From: Octopus vulgaris
Taxonomy: Eukaryota
Direction of reading: 5' to 3'
NCBI GenBank assembly: GCA_951406725.2
Contig: OX597816.1
Span: forward strand, 181,908,001-181,972,000
DNA length: 64,000 bases
The position numbers and the translations under genes were made by a program. The notes under the pieces were generated by a model, which made no database searches, was not told the DNA's origin, and was given only the letters and a program-made list of their open reading frames with translations. Positions 3,481 through 58,419 of the stretch are shown in pieces. The first letter of the stretch is position 1; each line of letters opens with the position of its first letter.

Positions 3481-3526
3481 GCATTCAGTCATATAATAAC
3501 ATAAATAATATATATATGCATATGTG

Positions 3527-5351: not shown

Positions 5352-5567
5352 ATCAGTGTACGAGCAATAGTAACTGTTCATATGGTGCAACTTGTAAAAA
5401 TAATGTCTGTGAGTGTGACATCGAATGTCATGAGAGCCTGTCTTCGGATGGCGAAGTCTGTGCTTCAGATGGCCGAGTTTACAATAGTGAGTGTGAGATG
5501 AGGAGAGAGGGCTGTGAGAAGAATATTGATCTCATTCTTCATGACTATTGTCCTAACCCTACACGAG
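5352..5567 (+). CDS. Exon: complete follistatin module 1 (FOLN + Kazal), phase 1-1
   Basis: tttcag|AT CAG TGT...ACA CGA G|gtaact, 216 nt. Translation (D)[71 protein letters not shown] has 10 Cys and the Kazal motif VCASDGxxYxSEC. Confidence 0.93.
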
Positions 5568-8500
5568 GTAACTTCCAAACTGTTCTCAAAAGAAAAACGC
5601 CCACCCTTTGTAAAGCCTTGCATCACTTGAACTTCATTCCCGTCTCGCGTTTGGTCATTATGCTTCAACTTGCCTTTATTTGATTGCTGGCTTTTCTCCA
5701 TATGCACAAAATCTAGGTTTCACTGAGTAGAACATGAAATGAGCTGCAGATTTTTCTTTTTGAATATTTCCTATTGCTATGTTAATTTTTTTCTCTTTTT
5801 TTTCACTCCATGTTGTTTTGCTGCTGTTCCTTCAACTCGTGAAGTTTGTTATATTTAACTGGGTTGATCTGAAATTTATAGTTTATGTCATAGAGGGTAA
5901 ATGACGGTTAAATATTTGTTGGGTTTAGATACCCAGGTGCTATACACTAGATTACAAAATACATTTTAAATACCTGAAAGCTTATTATGATTAACTCATT
6001 TAATACCAACCTGACTTAGACTTTCATTAGTTCTATGATATAAAACATACCATTTTAAAATGTTTATACTTAAATTTGGTGAAACCTGTCATAATTTTAT
6101 TGAAAATTTTTAAGTTATAAGTTCCAGATTAATAATGAGAAAGAAAAGACCCTGATTTTACTAAATCTGTCCAAAATAATATTATTTTACAAAACTAATT
6201 TAAATATTCATGGTGATGCTCCAGCATGACCACAGTCACATGACTGAAATGTATAAATGGATATGAACGAGTATAGATTGTAAGTTTTATTAGAAATGTA
6301 GTCAGAAAAAAGGATTAATCAACAAAGTAATTAGTATTACTTTAACAAAAATATCTCACTTGTGTGCTGGGGGTCTTCAATGGTGTCTTTGTATTGCAAG
6401 TAGTTAGGACTAATCTAAGGATAGTGATAACTTCCTTTTGCTCCACAGTTGCTTTGAGGAAGGTCCTGGTTGTGCCCTTCTTCCCCTAACTAAACCATTA
6501 AAAAATTCTATCAAAAACTTAAAACTGTTGGTCATCTTACTATAATGAGCATTATGTCCATCTATGTTTCCTCTTCACGGTCAAATGGCTAATCCAATGG
6601 TCATGATGTTTTTTGGCATTACAAAGGAGGTAATCAGGAAAGTTTTTAGTGAAAAAAATGTAAAAAAGTATGATTATTTAGTGGATATTGAGTTTTGTAT
6701 TAATAAATCAACTTTGATTTTTTTTTGCTAAAATTCTGACAACTACGATTAACTCTGGATTCCCCTCCCCACCCCCGTATAGTTCATGAATTTACAGGGG
6801 TTTAGATTTGCGATACTATCCCTTTATTTCCCATTGTAGATGGGTAGATTTACTATCTTACTATAATGGGTGTTATGTTTATCTCTTTGTTCCCTCTTCT
6901 TGACTGGACCAATGGTTAAGATATTTTGGGGGATTACAAAGATGGTCGCCAGGAAGGTTTTCAGCATTAAAAAATCAGAAGGTATGATTATTTTGTGGAT
7001 ATCGGTTTTTGAATTGATAAACGACCATCACATTTTTATTAAAAATACACCAACCATGAGTAACTATGGATTTTCATTGTATAGTTCGTGGTGCCATTAT
7101 AGATACAAAGGGGGTTATGAGGATGGTTAATAGCGAAAATAAATTGGAAAAAGTGTGTGTCAGTATATAGTGTCTGGTTTTCATTAGGAGTGGTCCACAT
7201 AACCATTCATGATGCAGAGGCTGGGAGCCTGTTTCAGTTTCGGAGAGAATCATATCACATGGCACTTAGTCACAAAGACGTCATAGACTGCTGTATCACC
7301 AACAACAATGTGATTTCTTGAAGACATCACCCAGCAATCTATCAAAGTCCATTTACACATTTCTCAATACATACTGCTGTTATAACTCCCCACCCTCATT
7401 TTATGCCTCCATCGTAGATGGGTAGATTTGCTAGTTCAGTAGAAAGTGGAATCTATATAAATTTTAAAGAACTCCTTTACTTTTTAATTTTAAACAAATA
7501 TGTGAGAGTTATATTATCATAGATTTAAAAAGTCTACTTGTGGCACCTGGTACCGGTGAAGTGTCTGCTATTATAGCCTCAAGCGGACCAATGCCTTGTG
7601 GGTGAAATCTTGTTGATGGAAGCCAATACAGATATCTCTGAGTATTGTGTGTGTGTGTGTGTATTAGTATCTGCATATCTTCTCAAAGGCACTACTTTGT
7701 CAGTGACATTATTTGTTTCCAAAACAAAAGATCCAGCTGTAAGGGTTGATGTCAGGAAGGGCATCCAGCCATAGAAAACATCCAACTTTAAATGTTATGT
7801 CTTTGGCAGTGTGAAGAAAGCCGACATAAAAGTGTTGAATTTGATTTGTCTTTAAAAACAGTCTATCTTGTTATGATTTTTGGAACAATGAAATGGGGTG
7901 GTGGAGGTGTTTTTTTTTTTAACCCTGGGTTATTACAATAACCTCTCTAGGGGTTTTGTTTTCAGCCCAAAGTTAATTCTGGTAACTCAAACAGACATAT
8001 GATTGAATGTTTCAGTCTTGACCATCCTGCTTTTAGTATATATATATATATATTAATGGTTGGGTGTCATCTGCTGTTTCTAGCAGGTTCAGCACTCAAA
8101 GGATGGGTGAGGAACCCTTTGCCCACAGTTAAAATTTCACTCACATTGAAATTTGAGAACACCCTCCCCTCCCTGTTGTTAGAGTTCTCTTAAAAACCTA
8201 TACAAAAATATTAGCTTAAGCCTTAACAGCATAACAGTAATTTGATATTAGCCGTATTAACTATTGAATGTGTAAAATTAAAGATTTATTTTTCTCTGTG
8301 TTGTGTCCCTATAAGTGCTTAAGCACTTGCAGTTTGTCCCTTGTTCAAAAAAAGCTTCCCATCCCCTAATTTAAGGTTTCCCTCTCTGTTGATTTCTATC
8401 CCAGCCATTTAGCTCTTAGGTTTTAATTATCATGAGAAATTCAATCAAAAATTAAATTAATCCTAGTAGTTATAATATAAATGTTCTACAATAAGGAAAA

Positions 8501-8809
8501 AAAATAATTTTAATTAATTAGGGTTGTTAAATAGCAGTAAGAATTCCTTATTAGTGTTTTCAAATTTTCTATTGAATTTCATTTTATTTGTATTCCCACC
8601 CCCATTCCTTTCTCCTCGTAACAGAAAGACAAAGAAAGCTAGCCATGTCTCTATGATTATTACCGATGATATTTATAACTGCTGTAGTTGTTTCTGCAAT
8701 AGGGAAAGAAACATGCACTTGGTTCTGTTGTTACTCTGGCATTGCAAATATGTACAGCACAAGGATTGCTGATCAAAGAATTCTTCAACATTGTAGTGAT
8801 AAGTATCAC

Positions 8810-8855
<46 letters not shown>

Positions 8856-11800
8856 TTCTGTCCGGCAGTCGCCATGATAGATCGGTAGCTACTACACACA
8901 TTTTTTTTCTCTTCTTGTTTCTTTCTGTGGAAGAGCATAGGCTTGAAGTGTAAAAGACTTTTTCAATTCCCGAGCGTTATACTAATACATCTGTTTGTTT
9001 TCTACACCACCTGTCTTCATCTTGTTTTTTTTTCGTAAATTCTCCCTATATATATATGTATATACATATATATATTGGAGTGTGATTTAGATTGGCTTGA
9101 GATTTAGGACATAACTTGTAGTTCCTAATTCAGAAGATGACAGAGAAATTATTAAGCAATTTTGGCTGATGCTCTCAACAAGTTCATACAACCAAGTAGT
9201 AGAAAGTCACTTTTTATATTTCCATTTTCCCATAGCTTTTCTTCCACCATTGAATTTTTAGTTTTACCAATTTTTCCCCTCTCCTCTTTCAATCTTGGGC
9301 TTTCTTAATGCTACAATTACGTTAGTATTAATGTAATATATTTGTATTGGCTTGGTTATACCATTGGCACTAGGGCACGGGTACAATTGACTCTCAAGGA
9401 GCTCATTCGCTTTTAACTGATTTAGTTTCTCATCCTATTAGATACCCTCACCCTGTCCTTGTTAGACAAGCTCTGTAGGGGCTAGTTTAGTCATCTGTGA
9501 GCAGGTAATACTGCATTATGTGGTTATTAGTAGCAGGTTTTAATCAGTGTGTGATGGAATTGGTCTTAGTCTGATATAGACTTCTAAGATGTACTCTACT
9601 AAAAAAGTGTAAAAATGACTAGAAACAAAGCCCAAAAACACTAATTCTTGGATCAGATTGTCCAGGTGTTGGCTTTGATGAATGTGTTGATTGTATTTGA
9701 ATGTTTTTCTCTTTGTAAGTGTAGTGACTCTCTGCATTCTGTAATGTATATAGGAAAGGGAAATATCAGGTAACTTACTGTCAGGTTTGTTTCATTGTTT
9801 ATGAACCTGTGTATTGTAATGTCTGGTATTAGCGTGAGAGAAATAAACATTGGGCATGATTTTGAGACAGTTAAATATTGTTGGCTAACCAATAGGGATC
9901 TATTTATTTGTGTAAGCGGACTAAATGTAAGCACCATCATACAGTTATGGGTCAATGTCAGTTCTCTGCATAAAACTAATTTTAGGGTAAGCTACCATCT
10001 TCTGCTATACAGCAGTGATTTCAGTGACCAGTTCCTATCAGAGCCATATTCAATGTAAGCTTCCATTATAGAGACATGATTCAAGTTTTGTTAGTGTTCG
10101 AATTCCAAATATCTGTAGTTACATTAAATTATTTTAAGGACCGTGAGCTTAGTGTTTGGTCATTGCAGTAATTACTTGTTGGTTCTTACTACCTCTGCCT
10201 CACTTTAGCTTTTGTTGGTCAATCTAGGAGCTGTTCTCTCAGTTAGAGCTTATAATCTATGTCTTCAGTGGTAATTAAAAATTGGTGGTATTAACATGAG
10301 CAAGCTAAGTTTCATCGGAAAAATTAGAACTGGATATGCACCACATTGGATAGTAATTTTCCAGATTTGTTGTTCTTTGAAATCAACTGCTGAGCTAGTA
10401 AATATACTAATTAAAACAAGTAACTGATTTAATTATTTTCATTTCAATATTTTCCTCACTATATATATATATAGCATGTGTTCTTTCCACTCCTAGTTGT
10501 CTTTAATTATATGGTTTTGTTCATATTGAAGTTCCTGGTCTGAAACCTTTCTTAGATGTCACTATTCACTTGTTTATCATGTTGTGTACATCTGCCTATA
10601 ACTATAACAGCAACAACAGTTAGTACTTCTGTAAAAAAGTTATATATTGATAATCCTATGGTAGCTTATTTTTAATTTCCATTTTGTTTTGAAACTGAAT
10701 GTAGGAAGGAATATTAAGTATGGTGTGGCATTCTTCTCTCTGTTGATTGTTTGCGTATTAATCCATCAAGAAATGCTTATTGATTTTAGAAAGTTCAATA
10801 CCTATTGGTCTTCCTCTTCACCAAACTGATCGGTTTGTATTGCTGTTAATAAAATTGGTATTTTTCTTTGCTACATTACTGAACTGTTTGATTTATTTAG
10901 AGAAAACAGATTGGTTATAATGGACAGGAACTGTCAAATTTGGTAGTTTTCTTTTGGAGAATATCTGATTAGAGAAAAGATGTTCGCTAGATGGCATATC
11001 AGTGCATCTCTATTGTCATTAAATTGAACAGCAAATAAAAATCCTATTATTTTCAGTTAAGCTGTTATTTTCTATTTTACTAATCAATTGATTTCAGTTG
11101 CAGGTTCAGTTTCTTGACAATACTTGCTGAGGATAATCTTGTCTTTCTTAGGTTCTTGTTACGGAGCAATTTTCACATTTTGTTTTTTTCTTTTATTCAA
11201 TTTGGTAAATAATCAATATAGAAATTTGAACTGGCACCCAAGGCTATTCTTCAAAGTCAGTTCAACAAAGAAATCACAAGGAACAGCCCAAAGAAATATT
11301 TATTGGGGAAAATTAATCTTTTTGATTTAATGCGCTGAAGCAAAATGTATTTTAAAATTAAACTTGACGCTTAAAGAAAAAATAATTTTTGCCAGTTTTA
11401 GCATAGTTCTAGCTATTTATTTCTTGCTTGCTAAATATATTTTTCCTTTTTATTTTATTTTTTTTTATCACTTCAATTACTTCCATATTTAAAATTGAAG
11501 CTTTTATAAAAAGGTCTCCCCTTATTGTCTCCGTTGCCAATATGCAGTCTCCACCACAGGTTCCTATTTCACAGCTTTTGTTCGCTTTTCAGAAAAACCT
11601 AAGATGCAGGGTTTTACAATTTTAAATTGCTAAAGATGCTTTTCCATTTAGTTGTCTTCATTATGTATTGTTTTAGCCAACTTTAATGCAATTCAGCATG
11701 GAATGTCGAAACATCAATTTTATTAACTCAAACTGAATTATCTGGCCAACTAGACTGGTCACTTATGTATTTGAGTCAGCCAAGTAGATAGTATGCATGT

Positions 11801-14800
11801 AGGGGACTGAAAGAAATCCTTACAAAGAGAGAGAAAAAACAAAAAGATAGAGTAACCCCACTCCCCAAAGTCTGAGTGTCGGTGTTTCTTTCATTTCCCA
11901 ATATTTTTTATTTGCTTTTGTACATTCATCAAAGGTTGACACTGCCAAGCCAATATTTTGCCCACCAACATTTTCATTTAGCTTCATTTTTTTTTTTTGT
12001 GCTTTCAAAATATGATCAATCTATTTCTTTTTTTCTTTTAGCAAATATTTTGCATTATTTTCCAAATTGTTCTCACTTTATCCCACCCTCAAGCTTTTCT
12101 TTGCATGACTTTACCAATTATAAATGGTGACATGATTGGACAGAGATACAATCTGATGATGAGATTTTTTTATTTTTAATTCAGTAAATGATAAATTTCA
12201 GCTGACAATATTTGCTCATTGTATTTCAGACTTTGTTAAGTCTTTAGATTGTTAATGTTAGATCCAATTCATTAAATTCTTCAAAGCTCTCAGGAAAAAT
12301 TTATCTATAGTCTAGTATTTTAAATTTTATTTGGGGAGCTCCAAAATTCAGATTTATTGCAAGCATAAAATTAAGTAGATAAGTCATCTGAAATTTTTAA
12401 ATATACATTAGAGTCAAACTCTGAGGAAATAGTTTGTATCAAAACATCTGTAAAATAATGTGAATGGGTTATTTTAAGGGTATGACAGAAAACACCCTGT
12501 CGGTAGTGTAAAATAATTGGCAGTTTCCAATAGCTTAGTGCCTCATTATTTCCTTAATTCTCTCAAGTTACATTATTTGCTATCTTGTGTAAGAAAAAGT
12601 ATGTAAATGTCTTCCAAACCTTGATGGGTTTTTAAGAACTAGTGCCTAGTTATGAGCTTTTCTAAATTTGTTTATGGTTTAGAAGATGAAGAGCTGTGCT
12701 GCTGTCTTTTTCTAGTACCTCCAGTGTGTTGCGTTGATACAGTGGAAGCAATGCTTCATCAGCTTAGCTTACTCTTCACACTGAAGACATGAAGAGTGGA
12801 CCTTGCTAAAGACACTCAAGGGCCAAATAGTGGTGTTAAATCAAGTGAAAGATTATATCTGCCTCACAAGTTTTACGGCACTAAGCAGATGAAGGATAAA
12901 GCTTTCCTTGGAGAGGATACTGGTCTGCCTCAGCCATAGCTGGGTGACCTGGATGCATAGAATTGTGCTGTCCAAATACATAACAAAATATCTATTGTAG
13001 AACCGGGTTATCCAAATACACAACAAAACACCTATATAGAATTGTGCTGCCCAAATCCACACAGCAAAACATCTACTGTAGAATTGAACCCACGATGAAT
13101 TGATAATGCAACACAATATCTTCTCAAGTACTTTGCTTCTTCTAATGTCAGTTAGTGGTGACAAGTGTGAAGAGAATTTTTGCTGGTGGACTGACACCAT
13201 AGCCATTTCGTCAGCAGTCCCTGCTGAGCACAATCGGAACTGTTTTATTTTTTTAGATTCAGCAATCATTAACAAATGAACTTTCATCTGATAAAGTTCA
13301 GTGTGAAATTGTACCATTACAGTAAACAAGACTGTATCAGATAGAGATAGAGAACTAGCCAGTGCCTTTAATGAACTTGGTTACCCAAACTTTGTTGATA
13401 TAGATAAGCTTTTAACCCTTTAGCAGTCAGATTTTTTCTGTCAAATGTAATGCTTATTCATTCACATTGTTTTGAATTAATCCATGCATTATCTTGTAGC
13501 TTTAAGAGATTTCAGTGCTATGGCATTGTTGAATAGGTATGAGAGGTTGGATCTGACTAGTTTGAACATAAAACAGGTAGAATATTTTGGCTTGATATGG
13601 CCAGTTTAAATGCTAAAGGGTTAAATAAAATCAAAGTATTATTTGGGGTAACTATTTGTAGTGACAGTCTTTTAAAAAAAGGTTAGATCTGAATTTGATT
13701 TTCATTCCTAAAAGCTGAGATTTGAGTAATATACATTTAGCCACCACCACCTTCTCTCCTTTTTCAACTGAGGGAGCTACATGTCTCCTTTACTGCAAGA
13801 TATTTATTTCGGTCTCTCTACCATACTTTAAACTCTTACCTTTTGGCATAAACCCACCTCCCGCAGTTAAGGGGTCTTATTTTGTGAGTTACTTGGTGAC
13901 CTCACTAATGCTAGTGCCATGTAAAATGCACCGAATACACTCTGTGAAGCTGTTAGGAAAGGCATCCAACTGCAGAGACCCTTCCCAAGCAGACATTGGC
14001 ACTTGGCCGCACAGTTCTCTCGCTAGTCAGCTCCTGTCAAACCATCCAAACAAATGTCAGAATGGAAAAACAGACATTAAGTGATGAGGGTGATATAATT
14101 AGAAACTAAGTTGGAAATCACCATTTAGGGTTTTTCCTCTGGGTTTTTAAGGCATTCAATTAATGTTTAATAGCTGTAATAAAGATAAAACTTTAGCATT
14201 TAATACACACCTAAAAACCTGAAAGTGTTTTCTTTCAGTAAGTTTTGAATATTGTTGTTCAGCTTACTGTTTTAAGGTTTTTGTTTTATATATTATTTAG
14301 AAATGAGCTATTTTAACAAGTAGATTTTAAATGGTATCAAGTTAGGAAACTGCACCAACTATTTGATTATTTCTGCTACTAATAACTAAGCTTTTGAGAA
14401 GCTTGATACCAAGATCAGTCCCTAACTGCTGCATAAGCTTTTAGTTTCATAGGGGCTGACAATTTTACTATTACACCAGAACCTATGCTCTCCAGAAGAT
14501 TTGCATTCTAAATAAGACTATCACATACAGGTAAATTAAATCTGCAATCATTTCATTGCAGTTCTATCTTGAATTTTAGTCAGTCCTATGAGATTTTCTT
14601 TCTTTTTTTGTTCCTGATATATTTGTTGATAATACTGTGAAACTATTACAGTTCTATAACCATAACATAAACTCTTAAGTCATATCAATTTTGTGTGTTA
14701 CACTTCTGACCTCATAAGTTGTATATCTGTGTGTGTTTGTTCTTGCTGTTTTCCTAAGAAAAGTTGCAATATTGCACCAAGCTTCTCATTGCTTCAGTTG

Positions 14801-14806
14801 CAAATG

Positions 14807-14849
<43 letters not shown>

Positions 14850-17800: not shown

Positions 17801-20800
17801 GGGTTCAGTTCCACTGCGTGGCACTTTGGGAAAGTGAGACCAATAAAATAAGTACTAGGCTTACAAAGAATAAGTCTTGGGGTCGATTTGCTTGACTAAA
17901 GGCGGTGCTCCAGCATGGCCACAGTCAAATGACTGAAACAAGTAAAAGAGAGTAAAGAGTACAGTTTCTATTTGAACTTTCATCTGTACCAGTTTATTTA
18001 TTTTCACTGATTCAAATGATGTAAAGTTTTCTTTGTTGATAGTAACAAAGAATTCATTTATTTTATTTTAATTATATATTTTTTTATTCCCTTTGTTGTT
18101 TGATTTCCCCTGTTACCAAGTCGGACATCAAAGCATTTGAAACACCTTGATTGGTCATTGATGTTTCTATAATTTCACCTCTAGGCTCAGGTACAGTTGT
18201 GTGGTTAAGAAGCTTGCTTCACAACCGCCTTGTTTCAGGTTCAGTCCCACTACACAGCACCTGAGGCAAGGGTCTTCTGCTACATCCCCAGGCTAACTAA
18301 TGTCAGTGAATTTCACTGACAGAAATTGTGAGAAATCCCATCATATGTATGTGTCTTTGTGTTTTGTTGTTTGTCCCTCACCACTTTGACAACTGGTGTT
18401 AATTTGTGTATGTCCCCATAAAGGAGTAAAGATCCCTTCAGTCACGAATGACCATGAGATTGCACCTAGAAAGTTCCCCTCTGAAGCACAAGTTCAGGTG
18501 AGGTTGTTTATAGGAGACCAGCAGTCACCCATGCATACCGGCCTCCCCTCTCCATGCCACCAGTGTTATCCAAGTGAAAGGCAAATGCTGATACAGCTTG
18601 ACACTGGTGATGCCGCAACTCATTTCTACAGCTGAGTGAACTGGAGCAACGTGAAAGAAAGTGTCTTGCTCAAGAACACAACACACAGTCCGGTTTGGGA
18701 ATCGAACTCACAACCTTGCAATTATGAGCTCATTGCTCTACCCACAGAGTCATGCACCTCCGTAGAATAAATACTAGACTTAAAAATAAAAAAGCATGCT
18801 GGGGTCAATTTGTTCAACTAAAACCCTTCAAGGTGGTGTGCCCTAGCATGGCTGCAGTCCAATGACTGAAACAAGTAAAAAATATAAGATAAAAACTTAA
18901 ATTTTCTTTTGATCTCATTGAAATTATTTTGACTAATATTCATTCAAAGGACAAGATTTCTTTCTCTTTTATTTCTGAAAAAAAAACTTCCTGGACTTCC
19001 CTTCACAACTACCATAATTTTTTTTTTTTTTTTTTGCCTTAATATAAACTATATTTTTGTAGCTTACATTTAGATGATAGGCTGCCCCTTACTGAGATTA
19101 TTTAGTTTATCTGGTTCAGTATTTCACAGTTTTAAGCTCAAATCTTTACTCTTGCTTATTTGCTTATTTGCTGCTGAGTAATTTCCCTGCAACTTTTTTT
19201 TTTTTTTTACTTATAAACAAAAATAAATACCAACTATAAATGATGTATTTCACGTGATTTTGTTGTGAAATCACCCCCCTCCCCACTCCAAAATATCTTC
19301 CAAAGTTCTACCATGTTTTGTAAGTTCTGTTAGGGATATTTTGATCCTTTTTCTTTATATTGATTTTTTTCCATTTTTTTTTCCAGTTTTTATTTTCATT
19401 TTCTTTATGATGTTTAAAAATTTTATCCTTGTAAAATAAATAGAAAAGAAAAATACCAGTCTTAATCAGATTTAAATATCTTTTCCAGCTAATTTCTACC
19501 AGTTGTCTTCCAGATACTCTTATCGATTCTTATTCAAATTTTGTTTTAATTTCAAAAATCAGGGTGTTTTTTTTCTCTTTTTCTTTCTTTCTTTAATGTT
19601 CATTCTTATATCTGTCTTTTTCTTATCATTTCTCCAGGTCCAGATATTTTTTGCACTGCAACATCTTGCCTCTTTGATGGTGTCTGCAAAGAATTTGAAA
19701 ACGGAGATAAGCGATGTACATGTTCACATGACTGCAGTAATGAACCTACGTACGTAGAATAATGTTATAGTTTAACTAACTCCTTGAGAATGTATGATAG
19801 CAAGTATATTTAAATTAGGCTCTTTTTGAGTGAATTTCTTGATAACAATTACGACTATATTTTTCCTTTATTTCATTTAGTATATTACTGTGTTTGAAAT
19901 TGATATTTTTTTGTAAATCTTTCTCACTCACTCATTATTTGTATTTAAAGCAACACTCAAGTGTTTTTCTAGTTTTGAACATTCAAAAGCATTCTTAATT
20001 GTCATTTTAACCTAACAGACGTGCACACACACACACACACACACTAATATGCACAAGTGACACTGTGTGGTTGAAAAGTTTGCTTCTCGATCTTATTGTT
20101 TGGGGTTCAGTCCCTCTGCATAGGCCTGGGCCAACTAAAGCTTTGTGAGTAGATTTGGGTGGTAAAAACTAACAGAAACCTATCATATGTGTATGTCCTT
20201 GTTATAGAAGCAGCGTCTTCATTCCCACTGGTCTGCAAAAACATATCCAACCCTGAGGAAATATTTCTGTGCCTGGAAGCAAGTGAGTGCTTGGTGAGAC
20301 GAAGGGCATCTTGTCATATAAAATCTGCCTCCATAAACTCTGCCCAACCCATGCAACCATGGGAAAGGGGATGATGAATGATTTTTCAGGCAGCATGTCC
20401 CTTTACCAGGACCCTGAAACCAGAAGGCAGCTGGTATATTTAAACTGGTGACTTGGCCCAAATGCTTGTAACAGACTGGACCTAAAGATGAAGTGGAGGT
20501 GTTCAACTGGTCAACAGATTAAGTCACTGCCTACAACAGCCATTGTTGAATTTCTGTAGCACAAGCATAGCTGTTGAGTTGAGAAGTTTACTTTGCATTT
20601 ATGTAGTTTGGGGTTTGATATCACTGCATTCCACCTTGGGAAAATATTTTTTCCCTTAACCTTTAGTTGTCCAAAGCCTTAAGTGTGGAAATTAGCAGGC
20701 AAGTATTGTGTGGAAACCTGTCGAAAGGGTCTGTTCCTTTTTTTGGGTGGCCTACTTAACCCTTCAGCATTCAAACCAGCCATATATGGCCAGAATATTT

Positions 20801-21232
20801 AACCTGTTTGATTTTGAAACAGACCAGATCTAGCCTCTCACCTCCATCGTACAACGTCATTGTGAAACTAAACAATCACATCATCAAAATCTCAAAATCT
20901 GAAAGGATTCGACTAAAAGTATTAATAGGCTAAATAATGGTTTCCATACAGGCAACAGATTACTCTGTCAAATTTAATATTTATATTGTTTTGAATTAAT
21001 CACGCACTATTTTTAATAGTGCGTGATTAATTCAAAACAATATAAATATTAAATTTGACAGAGTAATCTGTTGCCTGTATGGAAACCATTATTTAGCCTA
21101 TTAATACTTTTAGTCGAATCCTTTCAGTTTCAAACACATGGGCTAGGGCTCTAGTTCGAAGATAACTTCCTCTCATTATTGTCAGAGGATCTGAAAAGGG
21201 CCATAGGTAATGCCTTTCCTTCTGAGTAAGTA

Positions 21233-21277
<45 letters not shown>

Positions 21278-24200
21278 AGAGTAAGCATATAAATGTGAAA
21301 CAAGGTGGAAAAAATAGTACTCAAATACCAGAGGTAGAGTAATATGCTTTATTTAAAGCAGCAGAAATATAACAAAAGCTGTTACTCAGAGTTTCACGTT
21401 TCCGTTTCACTTGAGTAACAGCTTTTGTTATATTTCTGCTGCTTTTAAATAAAATATATATATTATATGTATATAAGGGGTTAAATGTACATGAGGTTGG
21501 CTGTCTGTCCTGAACTAGCCAGCTTAACCCATTAGCACTTGAACTCCAATATCTGAGCCAAATATTTCTGTTTTATAAAAATAAACAATCTCATCATCAA
21601 AATCTTGATGATACGAGATAATGTATGATTAATTTAAAACAATGTGAATAAATAAGTATTGCATTTAACAGGATAATCTGAATGCTAAAAGGTTTATCAA
21701 AACTGGCCAAGGTGATTGGAAGCTCAAGTTCTACCCTGCCATCACCACAAACATAGCAAAACAAAATATATTTCTCTCCATATAAGTTACCATTTTAAGA
21801 TATTTTATTCACTCACACACAACTATTTTTTCTGGCAGACAGCATATTTGCTTCACAAATGTAAAATCATTAAGTTACTCCATTGAAGATTGTTGACTGT
21901 CAAAATTAGAAATTTCTGCATTGCCAGACTTAAGTTCTCCGTCAGGCATCACATTTTGCTGATCTATCCATCATTCTATTCGTATTAGAATCTCTCATGC
22001 AATTGGCAGACAATTTATTCTTAATACCAAACATTATGCACCCTTTCCCATCCACACTCTAACACTTATCATGAACCTACAAGAGAGCCTTTGTGTGGTT
22101 GCATGACCTGCTAGAAATAGCAGTCTATTCTCCCTCAAATCACATCACACCACCTTTAAAGGGCACATTGGATAATGTGGTTCAGTGTGTTACACGATTC
22201 CTTAAAATACGATTGAATAATCATGCCTCAAATGTCTTTGATCATAAGTCTCTCCCATCAGGGCCAACCAGGGTGGGGCTAACCAACATCTCTGACATAT
22301 AAGACTCTTTGCCTCAGTCGACCTCAGAATTTCTGTTTAACATTTTGGTACATTTTCTAACTTTGTGATGAATTACATGTTTATCAACAAAAGCTTTATT
22401 GCCTCCATTCCTTCACCAACCATTCTACTATACAATGGTGAGCTGTTGATAATCAAGGCTGTGTTTAGTAGGTTGCTTATCTGAAATAAAGGCAATTATT
22501 TTAACAGCAAAGTATCAGTGATCACCATTCACAATATGCACCAACCATGACTAGCTTGTGTGATGTATAAACTACTAAGTGACGTCATTGGGGCGTTGGC
22601 TATTTTACTGACGCTGATATCTTATATTGAGTAAACTTTTACCATATATTTTAACTGAAGATAGAAATTTTTCTTTATTTAATTTATAAATTCCTTATTA
22701 ACAAGAATATGGTAGAATCCATTGAGAATCCAACAGCACACCTTCTGTTTTGTTTTTTGTGTTTTTGTTATGTCCTTTGATTATATCAAACCCCACCCTG
22801 GTAGACTTTGCCTTACACCCTTCTATTGTCAAGGAAATAAGTACTGGTCTTGGTGTAATCAATTCTATCCGAGAAAGCATTACTCTAGCATGGCCACACC
22901 CCAGTGCCTGAAACCAATAAAACTAAAAGAACAATCAAGTTACAATATTATCTGCCTATGCCTGTTTCTAACAACTCCTAAAGCCTTATTCAATGTCCCC
23001 GCTACTTCTCCCTCTGTGTTACCATTATTTCACTAATCTTCGTTAACCAGGGAACTATTCTCACATCAACTGTTTTGTCACACTGACTGACTTGCAGAGG
23101 GCAAAACTGCTGAGCAGCCATGTTCTATGCTGTTAATCCTCTTTACAAGCCCTTTGTAAATTACTGTGAAGTCTGTTCTTCACAAACATCTGTTTTGACT
23201 TCTTTACATTTGCCTCATTCATTTTCTCTCCACCGCCTGTAGAATCGCTTTCCACCCACCACATGTACAAGTAGCATGCCCACAATATTTTCAATTAGTT
23301 TTAATTATTTTTCTTATGCATAATATATGAAAACCCATGCTATACTGGAAAGAAATTTCATCATCATCATTATTTAACGTCCGTTATCCATGCTGGCAAA
23401 CAGGGCAGTGGGCTGTACCAAACTCTCGTCTGATTTGGCATGGCTTCTACAACTGGATGCCCTTCCTAACGCCAACCACTTTACAGAGTGTGCTTGGTGC
23501 TTTTACATAGTGTCACACAGGTGCTTTTACATGACACCACACTGGCACTTTTATGTGACGCTGCACATAAACTTTAAAATGTAGATAATTTCAATTGGCA
23601 ATGTTGCATCTTCAGTCCATAAACAATAATCATCATCATTTAATACCTGCTTCTCATACTGGCATGGGTTGGATGGTCTGACAGAAGCTGGTGAGCCAGA
23701 AGACTGCCAAGCTCTACTGTACGCCTTGGCATTGGTTATCATTATTAAATGCTATGGAATTTATATTTTGGGAATTTAGCTTAATAATATGGTGTAGGAG
23801 AAAGAGAGGAACTGTCTTATAATGAAACATCTCAGAAATATAATGCTGTATAGTAATGTTAGAGATATGAATACTATGTGGTTGTGAAAATAATGGACAA
23901 TGAATCCTGATAGGGAGAAAGAGTTATATGGTCTATTGGAAGGGTGTGAGACATTTGGCACAGCTGTTTTGACACCACCTATCTGCCACTGCTGTTTCAA
24001 CACTGACTGATTTGACATCATATGTTTTAATGTTCTCTCTCTCTCTTTCATATACGTATATTTCTGCATGTATGTGTGTGTGTGTTTGCCTCCAGTGCTA
24101 AAAAGTACTGTCATCAAAACAGCTTCAATGTCCAAACAGTTGCCCCCAGTCATCTCATTCTACTACTTGAAGATGGTTGTCCTTTAAACTTTGATAACCA

Positions 24201-27200
24201 TTCCCACAGACATTGTCTGAGTGCAACTTAGAAACCTCATTCTAGACGTACTACAGGCAAAATAAAATCTCTCAAGATGGTCTTATCTCCTTCAACATTA
24301 CTAAGGAACAGCCACCATATATATCTTCATCAGCGCTTTGTTATACTCGAGAAGACCTGCCAACCACAACAGAATTGAGGTCCTAAAACCAAGGTGCCAT
24401 GTCAAATGCATTAGTGTGGGTGCCACATAAAAAGCATTTGTGCTGGTGCCATGTAAAAAGCACCCAGTACACTTTGTAAAGTGGTTGGCATTGGGAAGGG
24501 CATCCAGCTGTTGAAACCAAACCAAAACAAACTATGGGTACCTGGTGTGGTCCTTGGCCTTGCCAGTTACTATTAGACCATCTAACCCATGCCAACATGG
24601 AAATAGACATTAAGTGTTGATGACTGATGATGATTTTCTATAATTGCATGGTCAGACGAAATCTGTCTGATGCCCTTCATATCATGCTCTTCGTTTTGTC
24701 TATTTACCTTTGTGAAGAGTTACACCAATCCTTTAAAAAATAAAATAATAATAATAATATAATAATGATTTCAAATTTTGGCACATGCCAATAATTTTTG
24801 GGGAGGAGATAAGTCAAGTACATCGACCCCCGACCCCCTCTCCTGTACTCAACTGGTATTTATTTTATTGATCCCATGAGGACGAAAGGTAAAATCAACC
24901 TTGGCAGAATTTGAACTCAGAATGTAAAGACAAACAAAATGCCGCTAAGCAGTTTATCCAGTGTGCTAATGATTCTGCTAACGATTCTGCCAGCTCACTG
25001 CCTTAATTAGAATAATTAGAATAACTACCAAAAATTCTTAGCAAAGACCAAACAGAGAACATTAAGTGTAGAGGAATAGTTGGTGAGAACTGTCAAGACT
25101 GTTTGGATCCAGGGTGAAATTTGAAACACAGGTGGGTCACCACTAGTGGCTTGTCGTATACAGCTTATTTTCATCATGAATCTAGACTGAAATCAATCCC
25201 ACATGATTACATGTCATTGGGATATTTTGTATTTAATTACCTGCTTCTAATTCTTCTCACTGTCAAATTAACATTCAGTTTGTAATAAATTCTTTGTATT
25301 GCATTCTTTTGCTGCACCTTATTCATATTTTTGTTGACACAAAGTATTATCTCTCAGTTTAGAATCTCATAAAAATCTCTTTCTGATACAATTAGAATTA
25401 AAATATAAACTACATCTGAAATAATCATTTTGTGTTCTTTCATATGTAGCTTTTAAAAATAATGAGGCAAAATGTATGTTAGTAATACTATGTAGGACAG
25501 CTTCACATACAAAGAATTTACTGTTCTGACTAAATTTCCTTTCACTTTTAACACTATTAATTTTGAATATGAATCCATTATTTCCTGTTAATATAATTAT
25601 GTAGAGGTGCAGCTTGATCTCATTCATATGCTTGAGAACCATTTCCTTCTTTCAAGGGTTGTGAATTTACTGTATTACTTCCTATTGTTATAATAAATTA
25701 TCAATTGTTTTCAAGGTTACCTTACGAGTTTATAACCACTCCAACTGGCTTCCTTTTTTCCTCCTGTTTCTACTTTAGAACCATAAGCATTCCTTTTCAA
25801 ATAGATAATGTTGGTATGTCTCTTGTTCAAAGCCTTATTTTGAATTTGATTTATCCAAAAGTGTTGATATTTTGTTATGCCAACTTACAAAATACGAAAC
25901 AATTTCTGGTTGTCTTGTTCACTTCTTATTTATTGTTTAGCACAAGTTTTTCACTAGTTCATGTGTCGAAATAAAACCGTGTCTGGGACAGGTGAGATTG
26001 GTGCCTTGATAAACTCTTCAGCTTGAACTTTTCTGGTTTGGTACTCACTCTGTAGGTGTTAATCCACAGAAGTTCAAATTAAACAGTTAATACTGAACAA
26101 TACTACATCAATCAAACTACCCACAAAACTGGGCAATGAGAAAACTTCAGAAAGATGTGGTTCTGGGGAAAATAGAATTAGATAAATTGTTAAGTGTGGA
26201 GTGTGGTCCCAGCAAAACACATTAAAAAGAGTTGGGACACTTAAGGGAACTAAGGATTGTATGGCCTTGTATTTGTTGCAAGTCTCTAAATTTAATTCGT
26301 TTGAATTGGTAGGTAGGAATTAAATTGTCATGTTTTCAGTGGAGAATGATTTTGTCTTCTTGGTTCATAAAGGCAGTACATGCTTGATGTGGAGGAAGGT
26401 TAATCATCATCATCATCATCATCATCGTTTAACGTCTGCTTTCCATGCTGTCATGGGTTGGACGAATGACTGAGGTCTGGTGATCCAGATGGCTGCACCA
26501 GGCTTCAATCTTGATCTGGCAGAGTTTCTACAGCTGGATGCCCTTCCTAACGCCAACCACTCCGAGAGTGTAGTGGGTGCTTTTATGTGCCACCAGCACG
26601 GGGCCAGTCAGGCGGTATTAGCAACAACCTCGCTCAAATCTTTTACACATGCCACCGGCATGGAGGCCAGACAGCCGCTCTGGCAACGATCACGCTTGGA
26701 TGGTGCTCTTAGTACCCTACTAGCATGAGGCTCAAGTGCCAGTAAGGCGACGCTGGTAACAATCACGCTTGAATGGTGCCTTTTAAGTGCCACTGGCACA
26801 GAAGCCGGTTAACCGCTCTGTCAAGAAAGAGGGAAATTCACAGTGATGTGGTATATAAGGAGATGCCTTGAGGGATATTACCAAACCATGGAGTATTCCA
26901 GAGTTGATAGTATGTTGGTTTGTGAGTGCCCCATCTGCACATACTGGGACAGTACAGCTGGCAGGAAACATTTAAATGAAGAGACGACAGACAGATGAAG
27001 AACTTGAAGGTTCAACGGTAGACAAAGGTTTTGTTAATGCTGAGATAACATTGCTTTCCACCATGTTCCCATGGATAAGAGACCAATGTTATGTAACAGA
27101 GGAGAGACTAGATCTTCAGCATGTGAAGAGATTTGTTTAAGGTTGTCTCCATTAGCCTTGAGATATTGGAAGTAAGGGGAATAGGTTGATGGTTAGCAGA

Positions 27201-30200
27201 GCAAAGACACTGGACATCTTGGTATTCTTGTCTCTTAGTCTTAGGTCAACCTTAATCAAGCTAACCTATGATCAAAGTCATTCTAGCTGTAACTACCTCA
27301 TCTTTTTAGCAGATGTCTTTAGGATTACAATAGCTGTGTTTTCTTATTTAAGGCAGTAGTGTGTGATTTGACAGGAGACTTGACTTAGTTCTTAGTTTTT
27401 TCTCAAGGTTGAATGAGTAACTGCATAGAGACTCTCTTTGGTGCTGGCTGTGTGTCGATGGGGGGAATTGGATTTTAAATGAATGTTGTACAGTGTGGAG
27501 CTTAAGACAAACTGGGCAGTAAATGTGGTAACACTATGTGCAGGATTGCCACTTACAGTGTCATCTTAGTTGTGGAAAGGCAGTTGGGAAGATTTTGAAA
27601 AGGTTTGTACAAATGACTAGTAAGGGATCAGAATGCCTGGCTGCAAACTGGGGGACACAAGAATTTGCAGGCCATGCTGTGATTGAATACATCTTTGGTT
27701 AATTGAATGTTGTGGTGGTGGGTAAACAACATTCAATGGTGATAGCAGGTAATTTCTTAAAGGTGGTGGAGCAATGTTCTTCACCTGCTTCAGAACAACT
27801 GCAGATGCACCACCTTATAGTCTGTGAGAAATGATGACGAAAATAAATACCAATGACAGTGGAATTGGTCACCTGCTATTTTGGATGAGTCAGAGGTGGG
27901 GTACATCTGTAGCTAGAAGTAGTTGTTGTATAGAACTGGATAGATCTGACCACTAGGGCTGATTGATGTACAAAGACATTCAGGAGATGAAAGTATAAGA
28001 TAGATGCTTTGGTTAGAAAGGGAATCAAGTGATCTGATAAAGGCAGGAATGTAGCTGTGTTTGAAAGTTTCAAAAGAAACTTAAGAATGTTTGAAGAGTT
28101 TATATGGTAGTCAGAGATAACTGTTGTTAGAAATACTACGTAGAGTATAGCTCTGAACATGAGACATTATTTATGATCTGTGGAAGGCGGCAAGCTGGCA
28201 GAATCATCAGCAAAGTACCAGTTGAGCACCGGGGTTGTGTAATTGACTTACCTCCTCCCCTGGAATTGCCGGTCTTGTGCAAACATATGAAACCATTATT
28301 TATGATCTGGGAGAGAAGAAAATTCAGGATTATTGGATAACTTGTGGGACAGGCAACCTCTTAATGCATTAATCACAGTTTTTCAGCATTTTACCTCTCC
28401 AGCAATTGGCCACTTTGGGAAGTGTATGCTATCATGATTTCGATTAATTTTTATCTCTTGTTCTAAAACCTAAATCTTTGGCCAGACTTTATAAATTGTT
28501 CGTCATCAGTCAAGACACAGATTGAATTTAGTCTGCATCTTCCATTCTTATCACATTCTTATTAATGAATGCATTTCTTAATTAATCTTTTTCTCAGCCT
28601 GTTTACTCTGACTCACTCTCAAGGTCACACAACGCCATAAAAGAGATTATAAATAACACATGCTTGTCTGCCACCATTATGCAACTATAAAAAGGCCAGC
28701 CCCCACCCCACCCCTTTTTTATGTTGGAAATATGGTCAGGATACAAATAATTGAAAGAAGGGTTTTGTTCTTTGAGACGCTTTCTAAAGAAGCATTTGGA
28801 GCTTATATATTGAATTCTAACACGGGTTCAAGTCCTGTGTAACCTTCTTGTTTATAAAAAAAGATAATAAAATAAATTAAAAAAACACAAGCACAGGCAT
28901 GATTGTGTGGTTAAGAAACTTGCTTTGCAACTACATGGTTTTGGGTTCAGTCCCACTACACAGCACCTTCGGCAGGTATCTTCTGTGCTGACTAATGTGT
29001 TCTTAATGGATCTGTCAAAGGGAAACTGAAAGAAACCTGTTGTGTGTGTGTGTGTTTGTATGTCCCTGTAACTTAGCATTTCAGCAAAAGAGACAGATAG
29101 AATAAGTACCTCACTTTAAAAAAACAGAAAAAGTACCGTTTACTTAGAACCCTTCAGTGCAGTGCCCCAGCGTGGCTGCTGTCCTGTGACTGAAACAAGT
29201 AAAAGATAGGATTTTAGGGAGATTTGGCTGCTATTTCTAGTGGGCTCAGCAACCTTGTAGAGGCTTGCTCTCTTGTCCTCCTCACCTCCCTCTTTCTCCC
29301 TCTCTCTCTCTCTCTCATTGACTTGTGAAGTTCTGTTGATGAAGTTTAAAATTTGTGCTGTAATTAATTTAATAATAATTAAATAATTAGGGGCAAGGAG
29401 TATAATGAAAATTGATTCAGTTATTCCGAACTGGTTCTTTCTTTTTTTGTTGACTCAGAAGCAAAGAAATACATCCTTGGTGTTGGTGGGATTCGAAATA
29501 AGAATGTGAAAAGCTGTAACTAAAATACCCCAAGGTGTTTTATCTGCCCCTATATTTCCAGAGTTTAACTAGAGCAGGGGTGGGGAAACTTTTTAGTGCG
29601 GTGAGCAAAAATTTCCAAAGAAAAGGGTCCATGGGCAGATCACAAGTTCTAACTCTTATATCTGTGTAAATCTTGTATATATCTATGTATAATTTGATAT
29701 ACATTAATAATGATAAGTTTAAGACATTAAATTAACGTTGAACATCTTCATTAACGCCGCCACTGAATTTAGGGCGTTTATATCACTTATAAGGAATTCT
29801 CTATTTTTCAGCTGGAGTTGGGTCTCAAGAGGGTGGTACAAACCTAGCAATATGGGTTTTAGAGTGAAAACAAAATGTCCAATCAAATAGTAATTACCAG
29901 ACGATTTTCTCTTCGAGTCTGTTTTGGGTCGTAGTGGAAACGCGACCCATGTCGCAAATAGGCATACAGATATTGTATAAATTTGATAACTGAAAAATTT
30001 ACTATATTTCGTATATACGAGTATACCAGCCTGTGGGTGTAATAAAATGGACTTGCGGGTGGAAGTTTCCCATCCCTGAACTAGAATGTCCTTTAATTAT
30101 TTTCAAAGTAGAAGCAGTTATTACTTATGTTTATATGTATCTCTTATTGAGATCACTAAAGAACTTTTATCATTTACCTTTTACTTTTCTCAGTCATTAG

Positions 30201-33200
30201 GCTGTGGCCATGCTGGAGCACTGCTTTGAAGGATTTTTAGTTGAATGAATCGATGCTAGTACTTACATATATATTCTTATAGCCTGGTACTTATTCTATT
30301 GGTCTCTTTTGCTGAACTTCCCAAGTTATGGGGATGTAAACATACCAACATCAGTTGTCAAGCAACAGGGTGGGTAACACAGATACCAAGACACACACAT
30401 ACAGAAATAAAAAAGATATATATCTATATCTATCTATATATATATATATAGAACAATCTTACTTAGAAATGGATGCGTGCGTTCCGTCATATAATAAATA
30501 AATAAATAAATAAAACATGCATATATACATACATATATGTACGTACCTACCTCTACATGTATTGTTGCTCCCTCGCCGTTCTCAAAAGATAGCGTTCGTA
30601 AAAAATTTTATCTCGTTCGGCTTAACTGCCCTTCTTGTTTGTGTTACTGTTATTCTCCGTGTCCTGTCTTTTACTGTTTATATTTTGTACTGTCGTTACT
30701 GTCCTGTTTTTGTTACCATTTTTACCCCTCCGCAAAAAAATCTCAAATTTTATTTAATTTGATTTTCGCGGGAAGGAAAGTTTCATTGAAGTCATGTATT
30801 GCCTTGACCTTCGAAACGTGGAGTAGATGAAACAAAGGCGACTGAAGAAGGGGAATTTTCCTTGTTTTGTATGTCCTGTACCCTATTTTTTCGTTGTTTA
30901 AGAAAAATGTCCATTTCCTTGGTTTTCTGTTTATGTTTTCGTTTCTCATTGTGTTCGACGTTTTTTTGGTGTCCTGTACTCATATATACATGTAGAGGTA
31001 GGTACGTACATATATGTATGTATATATGCATGTTTTATTTATTTATTTATTTATATATATATACACATATATATACACACAACAGGCTTCTTTCAAATAT
31101 CTATCTATCAAACCCACTCACAAGGCTTTGGTCAGCCCAAGGCTATAGTAGAAGATGCTTGCCCAGTGCCACTGAGTGGCACTGAACCCAGAACTGTGTA
31201 GTTGGAAAGTAAACTTCTTATCACACAGCCATGCCTGTTGATGTATAATGTAATTCATTCTGAAAGTCAGAGTTTTGTTTCATGGAAATAAGGAAGGGGT
31301 TTTGTTTTTCTTAGGTTAAATTTTTTTGATGTTCTTCAAATCTGACTTGAATTTCTATTCCTTACTGAAAGCTGCTATGTTGTTGTTGCTGTTGTTAAGA
31401 CCCTAGATCAACCCTTATTGAGTAGTTGTATAACCAAAGATGTTCAATTCATGAATTGTTCTATTTTTTCATGTATCGGGGATTGAATTTTTATCTTATA
31501 CTTGTTTCAGTCATTAGACTTTGGCCACACTCGGACACTGTTTTGAAGGGTTTTAGTTGAATGGATCGACTCTAGTAATATTTTTTAATGTCTGATACTC
31601 ACTCTGTCTGACTCTTTTTCCACACTGCTAAGTTATGGAGATGTAAACAAACCAACACTGGTTGTCAAGCTGTGGAGGGGCAGACACATACACACACACA
31701 ACATGCTTCTTACAGTTTCTGGCTACCAAATCAATTCACGATGCTTTGATCAGCAGTAGAAGACAGTTACTCAAGTGGGACTGAACCCAAACCCATGTGG
31801 TTGGCAGGCAAACTTCTTACTGCGCACCAGAATTTTAGAGAGATTTGGCTGCCGTCTCTTGCAAGCCAAGCAACTTTCCTCTTTCATACCGGGTCTGGTG
31901 TTTTGTTGATGGGGATGAAAATTTACATTGTAATTAATTGGACAGCAGAGAGACAGCCATATTAAAACATTAACTAATTAAGGTAATATAATAAGACATT
32001 CATGGCAAAATTATAAAGAAAGGAGAAAGGTAATTGTTTCACTGTATATTTTTAGTTTACATTAAATCTCGTTTCTTTTATTTAACAGGTCACAAATTTG
32101 CGGCACAGACCATAAAATATATGCAAATGATTGCTTATTAAGAAAAGAATCGTGTGAACAGCAAACTGCAATAAACAAAACTCATATGGATTTTTGTGAA
32201 TGTAAGTTGCCTGGTCAGTCAGGTTTTACAATTGCTGTTAAAATGTCTTTATTTGATTTATGTTAAAATAATTTATTAGAGAAGTTAGATTAACTTTCAC
32301 ATCATCCGTATTGCAAGTTGTGACAGCTTGACAATAATTTTTCATTATCATTTTACTTCACTTCTGTGGAATCTTAGTATTCAGATAAACACAACGGAAT
32401 TGTAATGAAAACATGTCACATTCATTCGACTAAATTCTCTTAATTAAACTAACAAAGTCTAAAGTGTCTGTAGAATAAAATAATTTGAATAGAAACAGTT
32501 CCTTCTATATTTCAGCTTTCATTCCAATCATTATTATCATTAAATGCCCACACTAAAAAAGATCTGTTTATCATTGCACACATTGTTCCATTATTGCAGC
32601 TGGGGAGAGGGTCTCTTTGTAAATTCTTACAATGCATTTTTTTTATTGATAAAACAATGGAGTTGCTTGGCTGGCCTTTATTTATCAGTTCAGATATTAT
32701 TTTCCATTAAAACCTTAAACAATTGTCATTTAAACTTTTAATGATATTTAACTCTTTTTTTTTTCTTGCTTGCAGTGTGTTCAAGTATCGAGATAAAAAA
32801 CAAAATTGAGAACTTCAAACAATTGGAGCATTGTTCTGTGATAGAAGGGTATTTGCGCATTATTCTTTTGGATTACATGAAACCTGAGGATTATCAAAAC
32901 ATGCGCTTCCCCAAATTAGTTGAAATCACAGACTACTTAATAATGTATCGTGCCTATGGACTTAAAACTCTACGTGACCTTTTCCCAAACTTGAGTGTTA
33001 TTCGGGGTCAGGAGCTTTTCTACAATTATGCTCTGGTTGCATTTGAAATGCCTGATCTAGAGGAAATTGGTTTGAGCAGCTTAACTGTTATTCAACGAGG
33101 AGCTGTTCGTTTCAATAAAAGTCCCAACCTTTGTTACTTAGAAACCATAGACTGGAGTAAAATCACTTCTGAAGGTTCAAATGAGGCCCATTCCATTGCT

Positions 33201-49194: not shown

Positions 49195-49779
49195 TGTGTG
49201 TGTGTGTAATGTCAAGGTTGTTTTAAATGTTAACAAAAACAAGCCTTTATTAACTATACAGTTAAAGAAATATTTCTGAGACAGAATCTGGGGTTAGCTT
49301 TTGATACAAATCAAGAAATAACCAACTTCTACAAAATATTGGGGGCAATGACTTTGTTGTTGATATTTGTTTTAAAACATTATTACATCCACATTTACTC
49401 TTCGTCTGAACTTCAATTTAAATAGCTTCTTAATAGGTACCATTGAATTTCTTTCATTTCAGATTGCCTTTGTGAAAATGGAAAAGGCTATTGCCAGCAG
49501 AATGGTTCTTGCTGTCATGAAAATTGCCTTGGTGGCTGTAGAGGACCAACAGCTAGAGACTGCCTTGCTTGCAGGCATGTTTATCATGACAAGGAGTGTA
49601 AGAGAACCTGCCCACCAAACACCTACAAGGTTTGCAATACGATTTCCTTTTGTTTTGCTCAGATTTCAGCATCTCTGTTTGAATACTTTGTAACTGAATC
49701 GTTCATTCTTGCATTTTCATTTTCTTTCATTAAAAATGTTTAACTCTGTAGGTTTTATATATATATATCAGTTGCACTC

Positions 49780-49839
<60 letters not shown>

Positions 49840-57709: not shown

Positions 57710-58419
57710 GTAAGTACACATATTTTCATATTTTACATGAAATAATACAAAGTATTTGTTCATTTTTTTCATCCCTTCTATTTGCATGTGTTTGTATAGT
57801 CCAGTGCTCTACATCCGGTATGTCATGGCACACTGGTGTAACACAAGACAACGCTTGGTGCGCCACAGTGTAACTTGAATCTAATTTTCTTCCCCTATAC
57901 TTTTAGTTATATTTTTAGTTCAGATGTGCTGCCGAATATTGAACAGAATATAAGTGAAAAAAGGTTCTGGTGCACTGGTATAATCTGATATTGGGATATA
58001 ACTAATGCTTTTCTGTAGAACAATTAATGAATTTAAATAGTAAATAATTTTACATGTAAATTTTAAAGCAGTGAATTGGTGGGGGTCATTGGTGGAGTCA
58101 TTAGTGTTTTCAATAGAATGCCTCACAGTATTTGTTTCAATATTCAGCATTCTATGTTCAAACCGTGCCATGGTTAACTTTGCCTTTCTGTCTTTTGAAG
58201 CCAATAAAAAGGTAACAGTCCTGGGTAGTGTTGTAGCATTATATGAGATCCATTGTGGTATATATTCCAACCCATTGCCGAGCTATTGTCAGCCCTGAAA
58301 TGGCAGCCTTTCCTGAGAACATTATCAATAGCATGTAGAGGAGAGGCTTGCGTGCATGAGCAGCTGCAAGTCTTCAGAAAATCCTTACCTGGGTCTATGC
58401 ATACAACTGCAGATCTTCT

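Follow-up and report, generated by a model that had tools for sequence, protein, structure and literature searches.

Insulin and insulin-like growth factor (IGF) receptors, among them human INSR and IGF1R, the molluscan insulin-related peptide receptors and Sepiella SjILPR, share one architecture: a first receptor L domain (L1), a furin-like cysteine-rich region (CR), a second L domain (L2), fibronectin type III (FnIII) repeats, a transmembrane segment (TM) and a tyrosine kinase. The insulin-like peptide receptor of Octopus vulgaris has the same L1-CR-L2-FnIII-TM-kinase plan. Here we analyse its gene in a stretch of 64,000 nucleotides (the window; GenBank assembly GCA_951406725.2, contig OX597816.1, positions 181,908,001 to 181,972,000 of the forward strand), where the exons of two follistatin modules lie in intron 1, ahead of L1. 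Such modules precede L1 in 0/125 of the other insulin receptors compared, whereas coleoid receptors have one or two, plus Lys in place of human Arg14. The variant is real, well supported and new among insulin receptors, with agrin as the probable donor and a function that is predicted. The explanation that we regard as likely is that the module pair is derived from agrin, that module 2 is fixed, that module 1 is a conserved option, and that the pair would form an accessory cap.

In the available passages of PMC5121292, human INSR exon 2 is given as c.101-652, and exon 11 as an in-frame cassette of the ectodomain, as module 1 is. From the first of these it follows that human intron 1 falls within codon 34 in phase 1, and Cys35 is the next codon. 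Human exon 11 adds 12 residues near the end of the alpha chain, while the octopus cassette is a whole N-terminal module. A general mechanism for gaining such modules is class 1-1 exon shuffling of extracellular modules (Patthy), for example in TMEFF/tomoregulin and WFIKKN/GASP. The octopus gene has the same arrangement, a symmetric phase-1 module in a phase-1 intron behind the signal exon. It differs in that the probable donor gene, the module numbers, and the internal intron can be named in the same genome, and in that a single module of the pair has turned into a conserved cassette. The exons concerned are as follows.

5352..5567, plus strand: module 1 cassette exon, follistatin/Kazal, 216 nt, phase 1-1, AG/GT ends; best match the agrin FS7 exon.
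19638..19749, plus strand: module 2 first exon (2a), EGF-like half, 112 nt, phase 1-2; best match agrin FS8a.
19750..32088, plus strand: module 2 internal intron, phase 2, 10 nt before the Cys codon of an x-C-G motif.
32089..32201, plus strand: module 2 second exon (2b), Kazal half, 113 nt, phase 2-1, ending in Cys-Glu plus 1 nt; best match agrin FS8b.
32776..33288, plus strand: L1 exon of the insulin-like peptide receptor, 513 nt, phase 1-1, with E-I-K-N at insulin site 1.
G000:C3:181845761-181845872 (L003:1501-1612), outside the window: signal-peptide exon, 112 coding nt, GT donor, phase 1.

Exon mapping, splice ends and joined frames all agree with the coordinates and phases that an earlier, sequence-only reading had given for module 1, module 2 and the start of L1. 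Module 2 totals 112 + 113 = 225 nt and has phase-1 introns at both outer boundaries. Module 1 matches Pfam Kazal_2 (E = 1.9e-8), and its closest sequences with a solved structure are agrin and follistatin. Each of the four modules in which we counted cysteines (modules 1 and 2 of octopus and cuttlefish) has ten, and an EGF-like part is followed by a Kazal part, as is typical of follistatin modules. A single-sequence fold of the cuttlefish modules gave a low-confidence model (pLDDT 41, pTM 0.26), and a search of the ESM Atlas returned only receptor-L clusters, at 0.85-0.87.

The insertion model proposed in the sequence-only reading needed an upstream exon ending in phase 1, and the signal exon, 67.5 kb before module 1, does end in phase 1. 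The L1 exon begins in phase 1 and its first Cys comes one codon later; human INSR Cys35 aligns with this Cys. The octopus modules occupy the same intron-1 position and phase as human INSR intron 1, at the same codon; the sequence-only reading had given this place and phase for the human intron, and the exon 2 coordinates in the available text of PMC5121292 agree. Phase-1 introns on either side and a phase-1 recipient intron are what is expected of class 1-1 shuffled modules. The phases, the signal exon, and the human alignment bear out the view that the modules are phase 1-1 units within an ancestral phase-1 intron 1. In silico joining of the exons leaves the frame open in every form (full, skip-1, skip-2 and skip-both); removal of only half of module 2 gives 15-16 stops. 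As skipping either module-2 exon singly shifts the frame, skipping of module 2 needs both exons to be dropped together.

Agrin is probably the donor of both modules. A genome search with module 1 had agrin FS7 as its best non-self match (C6:82914478, E = 1.1e-7, next 0.03), and a search with module 2b had agrin FS8b as its best match (C6:82924202, E = 6e-4, next 3e-3). The C6 gene is agrin: it has nine Kazal matches in a row, of which FS7 and FS8 are the seventh and eighth, and it stays collinear with Bemisia agrin across two laminin-EGF exons, FS9, LamG, and EGF. The relevant agrin exons are these.

G000:C6:82914464-82914682: agrin FS7 exon, 219 nt, predicted phase 1-1.
C6:82920271-82920391: agrin FS8a, 121 nt, phase 1-2.
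C6:82924198-82924310: agrin FS8b, 113 nt, phase 2-1, same 3' end as module 2b.

The two agrin modules and the two receptor modules thus have the same order, the same three-exon layout (1-1, 1-2, 2-1), the same internal intron and the same 3' end. The internal intron interrupts FS8 and module 2 at the same base (phase 2, −10 nt from the Cys codon of x-C-G), and both second exons are 113 nt and end in Cys-Glu plus 1 nt, so the comparison of introns with agrin in the same genome that the sequence-only reading had suggested came out in favor of a common layout. In the other two split agrin modules, FS5 and FS6, the intron is in phase 0 and lies at −3 and −15. The cuttlefish agrin protein P0173 has the same reading of FS8 across that junction. 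In pairwise comparisons with 11 octopus modules, module 1 scored best on FS7 in 3/3 cases (143-166, next 101-127) and module 2 scored best on FS8 in 5/5 (141-173, next 110-127). Module 1 and FS7 both begin with D-x-C and have a short loop between Cys3 and Cys4 in common. Position profiles from 46 agrin-like proteins placed module 2 at FS8 in 5/5 cases, with a margin of 7-9 bits; as a control, eight of nine octopus agrin modules were placed correctly. Also, among 862 modules of 151 proteins, the top match to module 2 was FS8 of a cuttlefish agrin. The receptor modules are about 40-45% identical to agrin FS7-FS8, have lost the Gly/Ser linker that joins FS7 to FS8 in agrin, and sit on a kinase receptor.

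The module order, the exon layout and the shared intron favor a single copying event at the DNA level into intron 1. We consider it very likely that one block of three consecutive agrin exons, FS7-FS8a-FS8b, was copied with its introns by intronic recombination. Retention of the internal intron argues against retroposition of the modules, which we rejected for this reason. The earlier description of two follistatin modules stands, but they are not generic modules: they are probably one three-exon FS7-FS8 block of agrin.

Several results weigh against an agrin origin or leave it less sharply defined. The genome search with module 2a returned only module 2a itself. The donor site of the agrin FS7 exon, at G000:C6:82914682, is a GC donor predicted from genomic sequence only. 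The profile signal for module 1 is weak (FS7 leads by 1-2 bits in 2/3, and the octopus copy goes to FS8 by 0.6 bit). A quick tree of 114 modules (74 columns) has long branches, leaves 66/110 inner branches open and leaves the origin open as well; it puts module 2 beside Bemisia FS8 within an FS9 group and apart from cephalopod FS8, and it does not recover module 1 as monophyletic. A cruder tally by protein is noisy: among 29 agrin-like proteins, module 2 was matched best by the last module before the laminin-EGF part in 12, and module 1 by the second-last module in 7. The score of Bemisia FS8 is close to that of octopus FS8, so the sequence gives no date for the copy. Finally, module 1 of sturgeon TMEFF1 scores 152 against module 2, near the best agrin score of 160.

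A true cassette exon, module 1 is skipped in frame in octopus and in cuttlefish. The full in silico form is contained without change in the O. sinensis isoform X1 (P0028), as is the skip-1 form in P0026 and P0027; for skip-2 and skip-both, none of the 47 proteins compared gave a match. Relative to O. sinensis X1, both O. sinensis X2 and the O. vulgaris annotation have an exact deletion of 72 residues (e.g., P0026 vs. P0028), and P0036, from the cuttlefish cluster, is an exact 71-residue deletion of P0034. O. sinensis X1, O. bimaculoides, and cuttlefish cDNAs contain module 1, which is skipped in P0026, P0027, P0036 and P0037. Assemblies of the cuttlefish cluster include 25 contigs with module 1 and 9 without it.

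For the octopus, we aligned contigs from four sequencing runs to positions 4800-20300 and contigs from four other runs to positions 32040-33330. (The runs carry no RNA label, but the spliced GT..AG joints indicate RNA.) In the first stretch, all four runs have a long contig that spans module 2a, with no module-1 piece listed for that contig. In six such contigs the 5' part has a length that fits the signal exon and ends in or just short of the adjacent upstream (AT)n repeat. Skipping of module 1 thus appears to be the main path in those octopus samples. On the other side, inclusion of module 1 was not seen as a joint in O. vulgaris, where the tables for this stretch are crowded by repeats. Over these 15.5 kb, the depth in the module 1 bin was non-zero in 4/4 runs and inseparable from repeat matches, and the presence or absence of the joint 5567>19638 could not be read.

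In the second stretch, each of the four runs has a single contig, which joins the 3' end of module 2a to 32089 and 32201 to 32776 (GT..AG). There is no loose end before 32776, and module 2b is the sole upstream partner of L1 in 4/4 runs. The joints from the upstream exon to 32776 and from 5567 to 32776, which the sequence-only reading had proposed to look for, were not seen among the contig joints of these runs; only 32201>32776 was. As contigs drop rare variants, this limits a module-free form but leaves room for a rare skip-both form. Skipping of module 2 was found in 0/20 coleoid proteins and 0/4 runs, and in all likelihood module 2 is effectively constitutive. Thus, the idea of isoforms made by skipping in frame holds for module 1, where the deletions are exact in octopus and cuttlefish, and it is not borne out for module 2. 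Nor is there support for a canonical, module-free receptor from the same locus, as 20/20 coleoid proteins keep module 2. Two L1-only fragments, P0032 and P0035, looked like module-free isoforms, but their C-termini run beyond the end of the L1 exon into intron-like sequence and we rejected them.

Intron 1 has some other features. A retroelement remnant lies on the minus strand at window positions 1955-3484, 1.9 kb upstream of module 1. It has a reverse transcriptase frame (RVT_1, E = 6.5e-8) that continues in other frames, and a GIY-YIG-like motif without a Pfam match; this motif is reminiscent of Penelope-like elements. Between modules 1 and 2, a repeat at about 17700-18760 reaches a contig depth of 40,000-100,000 in 4/4 runs. 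Most of its copies differ at 17893, and this is probably a SINE-like element of high abundance. At the junction of the signal exon and module 1 (window position 5352), an RGD motif is present in O. vulgaris and O. sinensis; we rejected it as a functional site because it is absent from O. bimaculoides and cuttlefish.

We compared 145 receptor proteins of more than 800 residues, and a Kazal motif precedes L1 in 20/20 coleoid receptors and 0/125 others. The coleoid set comprises named Octopus, Argonauta, Sepia, and Sepiella records plus unnamed assemblies assigned by similarity. The other 125 are mostly fish, and hence not independent, but 11 of them come from named gastropods, bivalves and a chiton (two being 5'-partial). 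The insertion is therefore supported as lineage-specific. No protein named as Nautilus, Vampyroteuthis or squid was among the receptor matches collected, so the date of the insertion is bracketed only as after the lineage separated from other molluscs and before octopods and decapods diverged. Module 1 is present in 13/20 coleoid proteins (in one of them partly) and missing from 7/20; for Argonauta P0003 and the unnamed P0004, which are without module 1, skipping and loss are not distinguishable. In a Ruditapes philippinarum receptor (P0054, XP_060592514.1), residues 1-353 contain three SRCR domains that end directly before the first L1 Cys. This is possibly a second, independent insertion of modules at the same intron, although it is one gene model and could be a model fusion.

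The insertion adjoins a part of L1 that is itself unusual in coleoids. Module 2 ends one codon before the first L1 Cys, and the positions of human Asp12, Arg14, and Asn15 come 4-7 residues after that Cys. Most receptors read D-I-R-N here, and coleoids read E-I-K-N or V-I-K-N. Lys stands at the position of human Arg14 in 20/20 coleoid receptors, as compared to Arg in 113/114 other parsed receptors. (Another 11 were not parsed by the pattern; 10 of these show Arg when read, and one is truncated.) Coleoids thus deviate from the site-1 motif Asp12-x-Arg14-Asn15, but this is a deviation inside the family and does not exclude them from it. In the human receptor, according to the available text of PMC2577065, alanine at Asp12, Arg14 or Asn15 cuts insulin affinity by 5-6-fold, >500-fold, and 134-fold, respectively. 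The net charge of the modules is −8 and −6 in octopus and −7 and −2 in cuttlefish; with both modules acidic, heparin binding seems unlikely.

We propose that a cephalopod ancestor acquired FS7-FS8a-FS8b in the phase-1 intron 1 of its receptor, where phase-1 ends on both sides would have let the copied block be spliced in frame at once, and that module 2 then became fixed while module 1 stayed optional. Module 2 might serve as an accessory cap beside site 1, adding a contact or a gate for insulin-like peptides, and tissues would adjust affinity or selectivity by including module 1. That module 2 adds to or gates ligand contact where Arg14 became Lys and Asp12 became Glu or Val, with module 1 tuning it, is a tentative proposal from sequence comparison. 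A broader version is more doubtful: that coleoids rebuilt the ligand-binding end of their only insulin receptor, with a block of agrin, a synapse organizer, grafted onto L1, the near-invariant Arg14 lost, an agrin-derived module supplying or gating the binding of ligands (insulin-like peptides, or a second input from the TGF-beta family), and a splice switch in place since the octopod-decapod split. Counting against any functional link, the Arg-to-Lys change and the modules arose once on the same branch, which is one coincidence and not a statistical association.

Other accounts of the origin of the modules can be weighed against the agrin block. The donor could have been a TMEFF/tomoregulin-like gene or another gene with follistatin modules, so that the likeness to agrin would reflect only the common ancestry of the modules. 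Module 1 of TMEFF1 does match module 2 nearly as well as agrin FS8 does, and the tree is not resolved. However, the comparison with TMEFF that the sequence-only reading had suggested found no TMEFF-like gene in octopus: a search of the octopus genome with sturgeon TMEFF1 (a lower bound) gave 11 matches, 8 of them in agrin, all in the follistatin part and none in the EGF or membrane part. Also, the FS8-like module comes first in TMEFF, which is the reverse of the order in the receptor, and modules of 25 other Kazal loci never scored best. We consider this origin very unlikely. (The first module of sturgeon tomoregulin-1, P0301/P0275, resembles agrin FS8 as well as receptor module 2, which hints that FS8 has been borrowed more than once; the profile test gave no placement for it.) Nor does it seem at all probable that the two modules were inserted into intron 1 independently, each being skippable, so that a canonical receptor and capped isoforms would come from the same locus. 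In favor of this, each of the four combinations stays in frame, module 1 is skipped, and contigs cannot show rare variants. But module 2 is present in all of the coleoid proteins, only module 2b was found before L1 in the four runs, two exons would have to be dropped together to skip module 2, and the agrin modules matched by the pair are neighbors and keep its order.

Other accounts of function accept the agrin origin. The modules might capture TGF-beta-family ligands (BMP2/4, TGF-beta) or matrix partners and leave the binding of insulin peptides unaffected, which would couple those signals, or a synaptic or matrix location, to the insulin receptor. The available text of PMC2874008 reports that the follistatin region of rat agrin binds TGF-beta-family ligands at 10-100 nM; all 10 cysteines are kept in both modules, and both modules are acidic, which could suit basic ligands. 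On the other hand, this binding is known, in that text, for rat agrin only; the receptor modules have diverged from agrin FS7 and FS8 far more than octopus and cuttlefish agrin have from each other, which argues for a new role; and the change at site 1 is left unexplained. This account seems rather unlikely. Alternatively, the modules could be tolerated, nearly neutral passengers that fold but have no effect on signaling. They are less conserved between octopus and cuttlefish (49% and 55%) than L1 is (78%), and the main octopus contigs lack module 1. Yet all 20 cysteines, the reading frame, and the choice of module 1 as a cassette have been kept in both major coleoid lineages across introns of 12-14 kb, and we think it unlikely that the modules are passengers. 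The agrin-derived pair with a predicted role at the ligand-binding end is the account that we prefer.

The rest of the gene is that of an insulin/IGF receptor. Pfam recognizes a receptor L domain in the exon that starts at 32776 (E = 5e-26), and the encoded sequence matches the O. vulgaris insulin-related peptide receptor P0001 with 100% identity. Two receptor L domains flank the furin-like cysteine-rich region and are followed by FnIII repeats and the tyrosine kinase (from Pfam matches on P0027/P0028 and exons mapped on C3), and the alignment with human INSR has E = 7e-303. The octopus receptor thus belongs to the insulin/IGF receptor family, and ligand binding and autophosphorylation are predicted from family membership. 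Downstream of L1 in the window are the next receptor exons.

49462..57729 (approximate span), plus strand: furin-like cysteine-rich region and L2.

The kinase exons are farther downstream and reach about C3:182027097. A genome search with the L1 exon, which gives a lower bound on receptor copies, found this locus and one weak 42% match, but no second insulin receptor or module-free paralogue. The O. vulgaris model P0001 has another N-terminus, apparently spliced into an internal AG of the signal exon with loss of the first 14 residues of the signal peptide.

The receptor sequences and their Kazal matches are already in public databases. In the available text of the Sepiella japonica SjILPR paper (PMC9654127), the domains are listed from residue 220 on and the N-terminus is described only as a hydrophobic segment; "Kazal" occurs 0 times in a term search of that text, though the cloned receptor has both modules. 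Term searches of the available text of PMC8286064, PMC9221753, and PMC5736919 gave no relevant passage. In the literature that we searched, mostly open-access text, we found no account of the receptor modules, their splicing, or their origin.

The ectodomain layout of the insulin receptor is among the most stable in animals, and here modules were gained beside the main hormone contact in the only gene copy found. Because the probable donor exons can be named in the same genome, this is a clean and testable case of exon shuffling. For cephalopod physiology, the receptor has so far been treated as conventional, even though insulin signaling is tied to ovarian maturation in cuttlefish (in the available text of PMC9654127) and insulin is discussed in the parts of the octopus optic-gland literature that we covered. 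The natural isoforms with one or two modules offer a direct experiment on what the modules, which may cap the hormone-binding end of the receptor, do in these animals.

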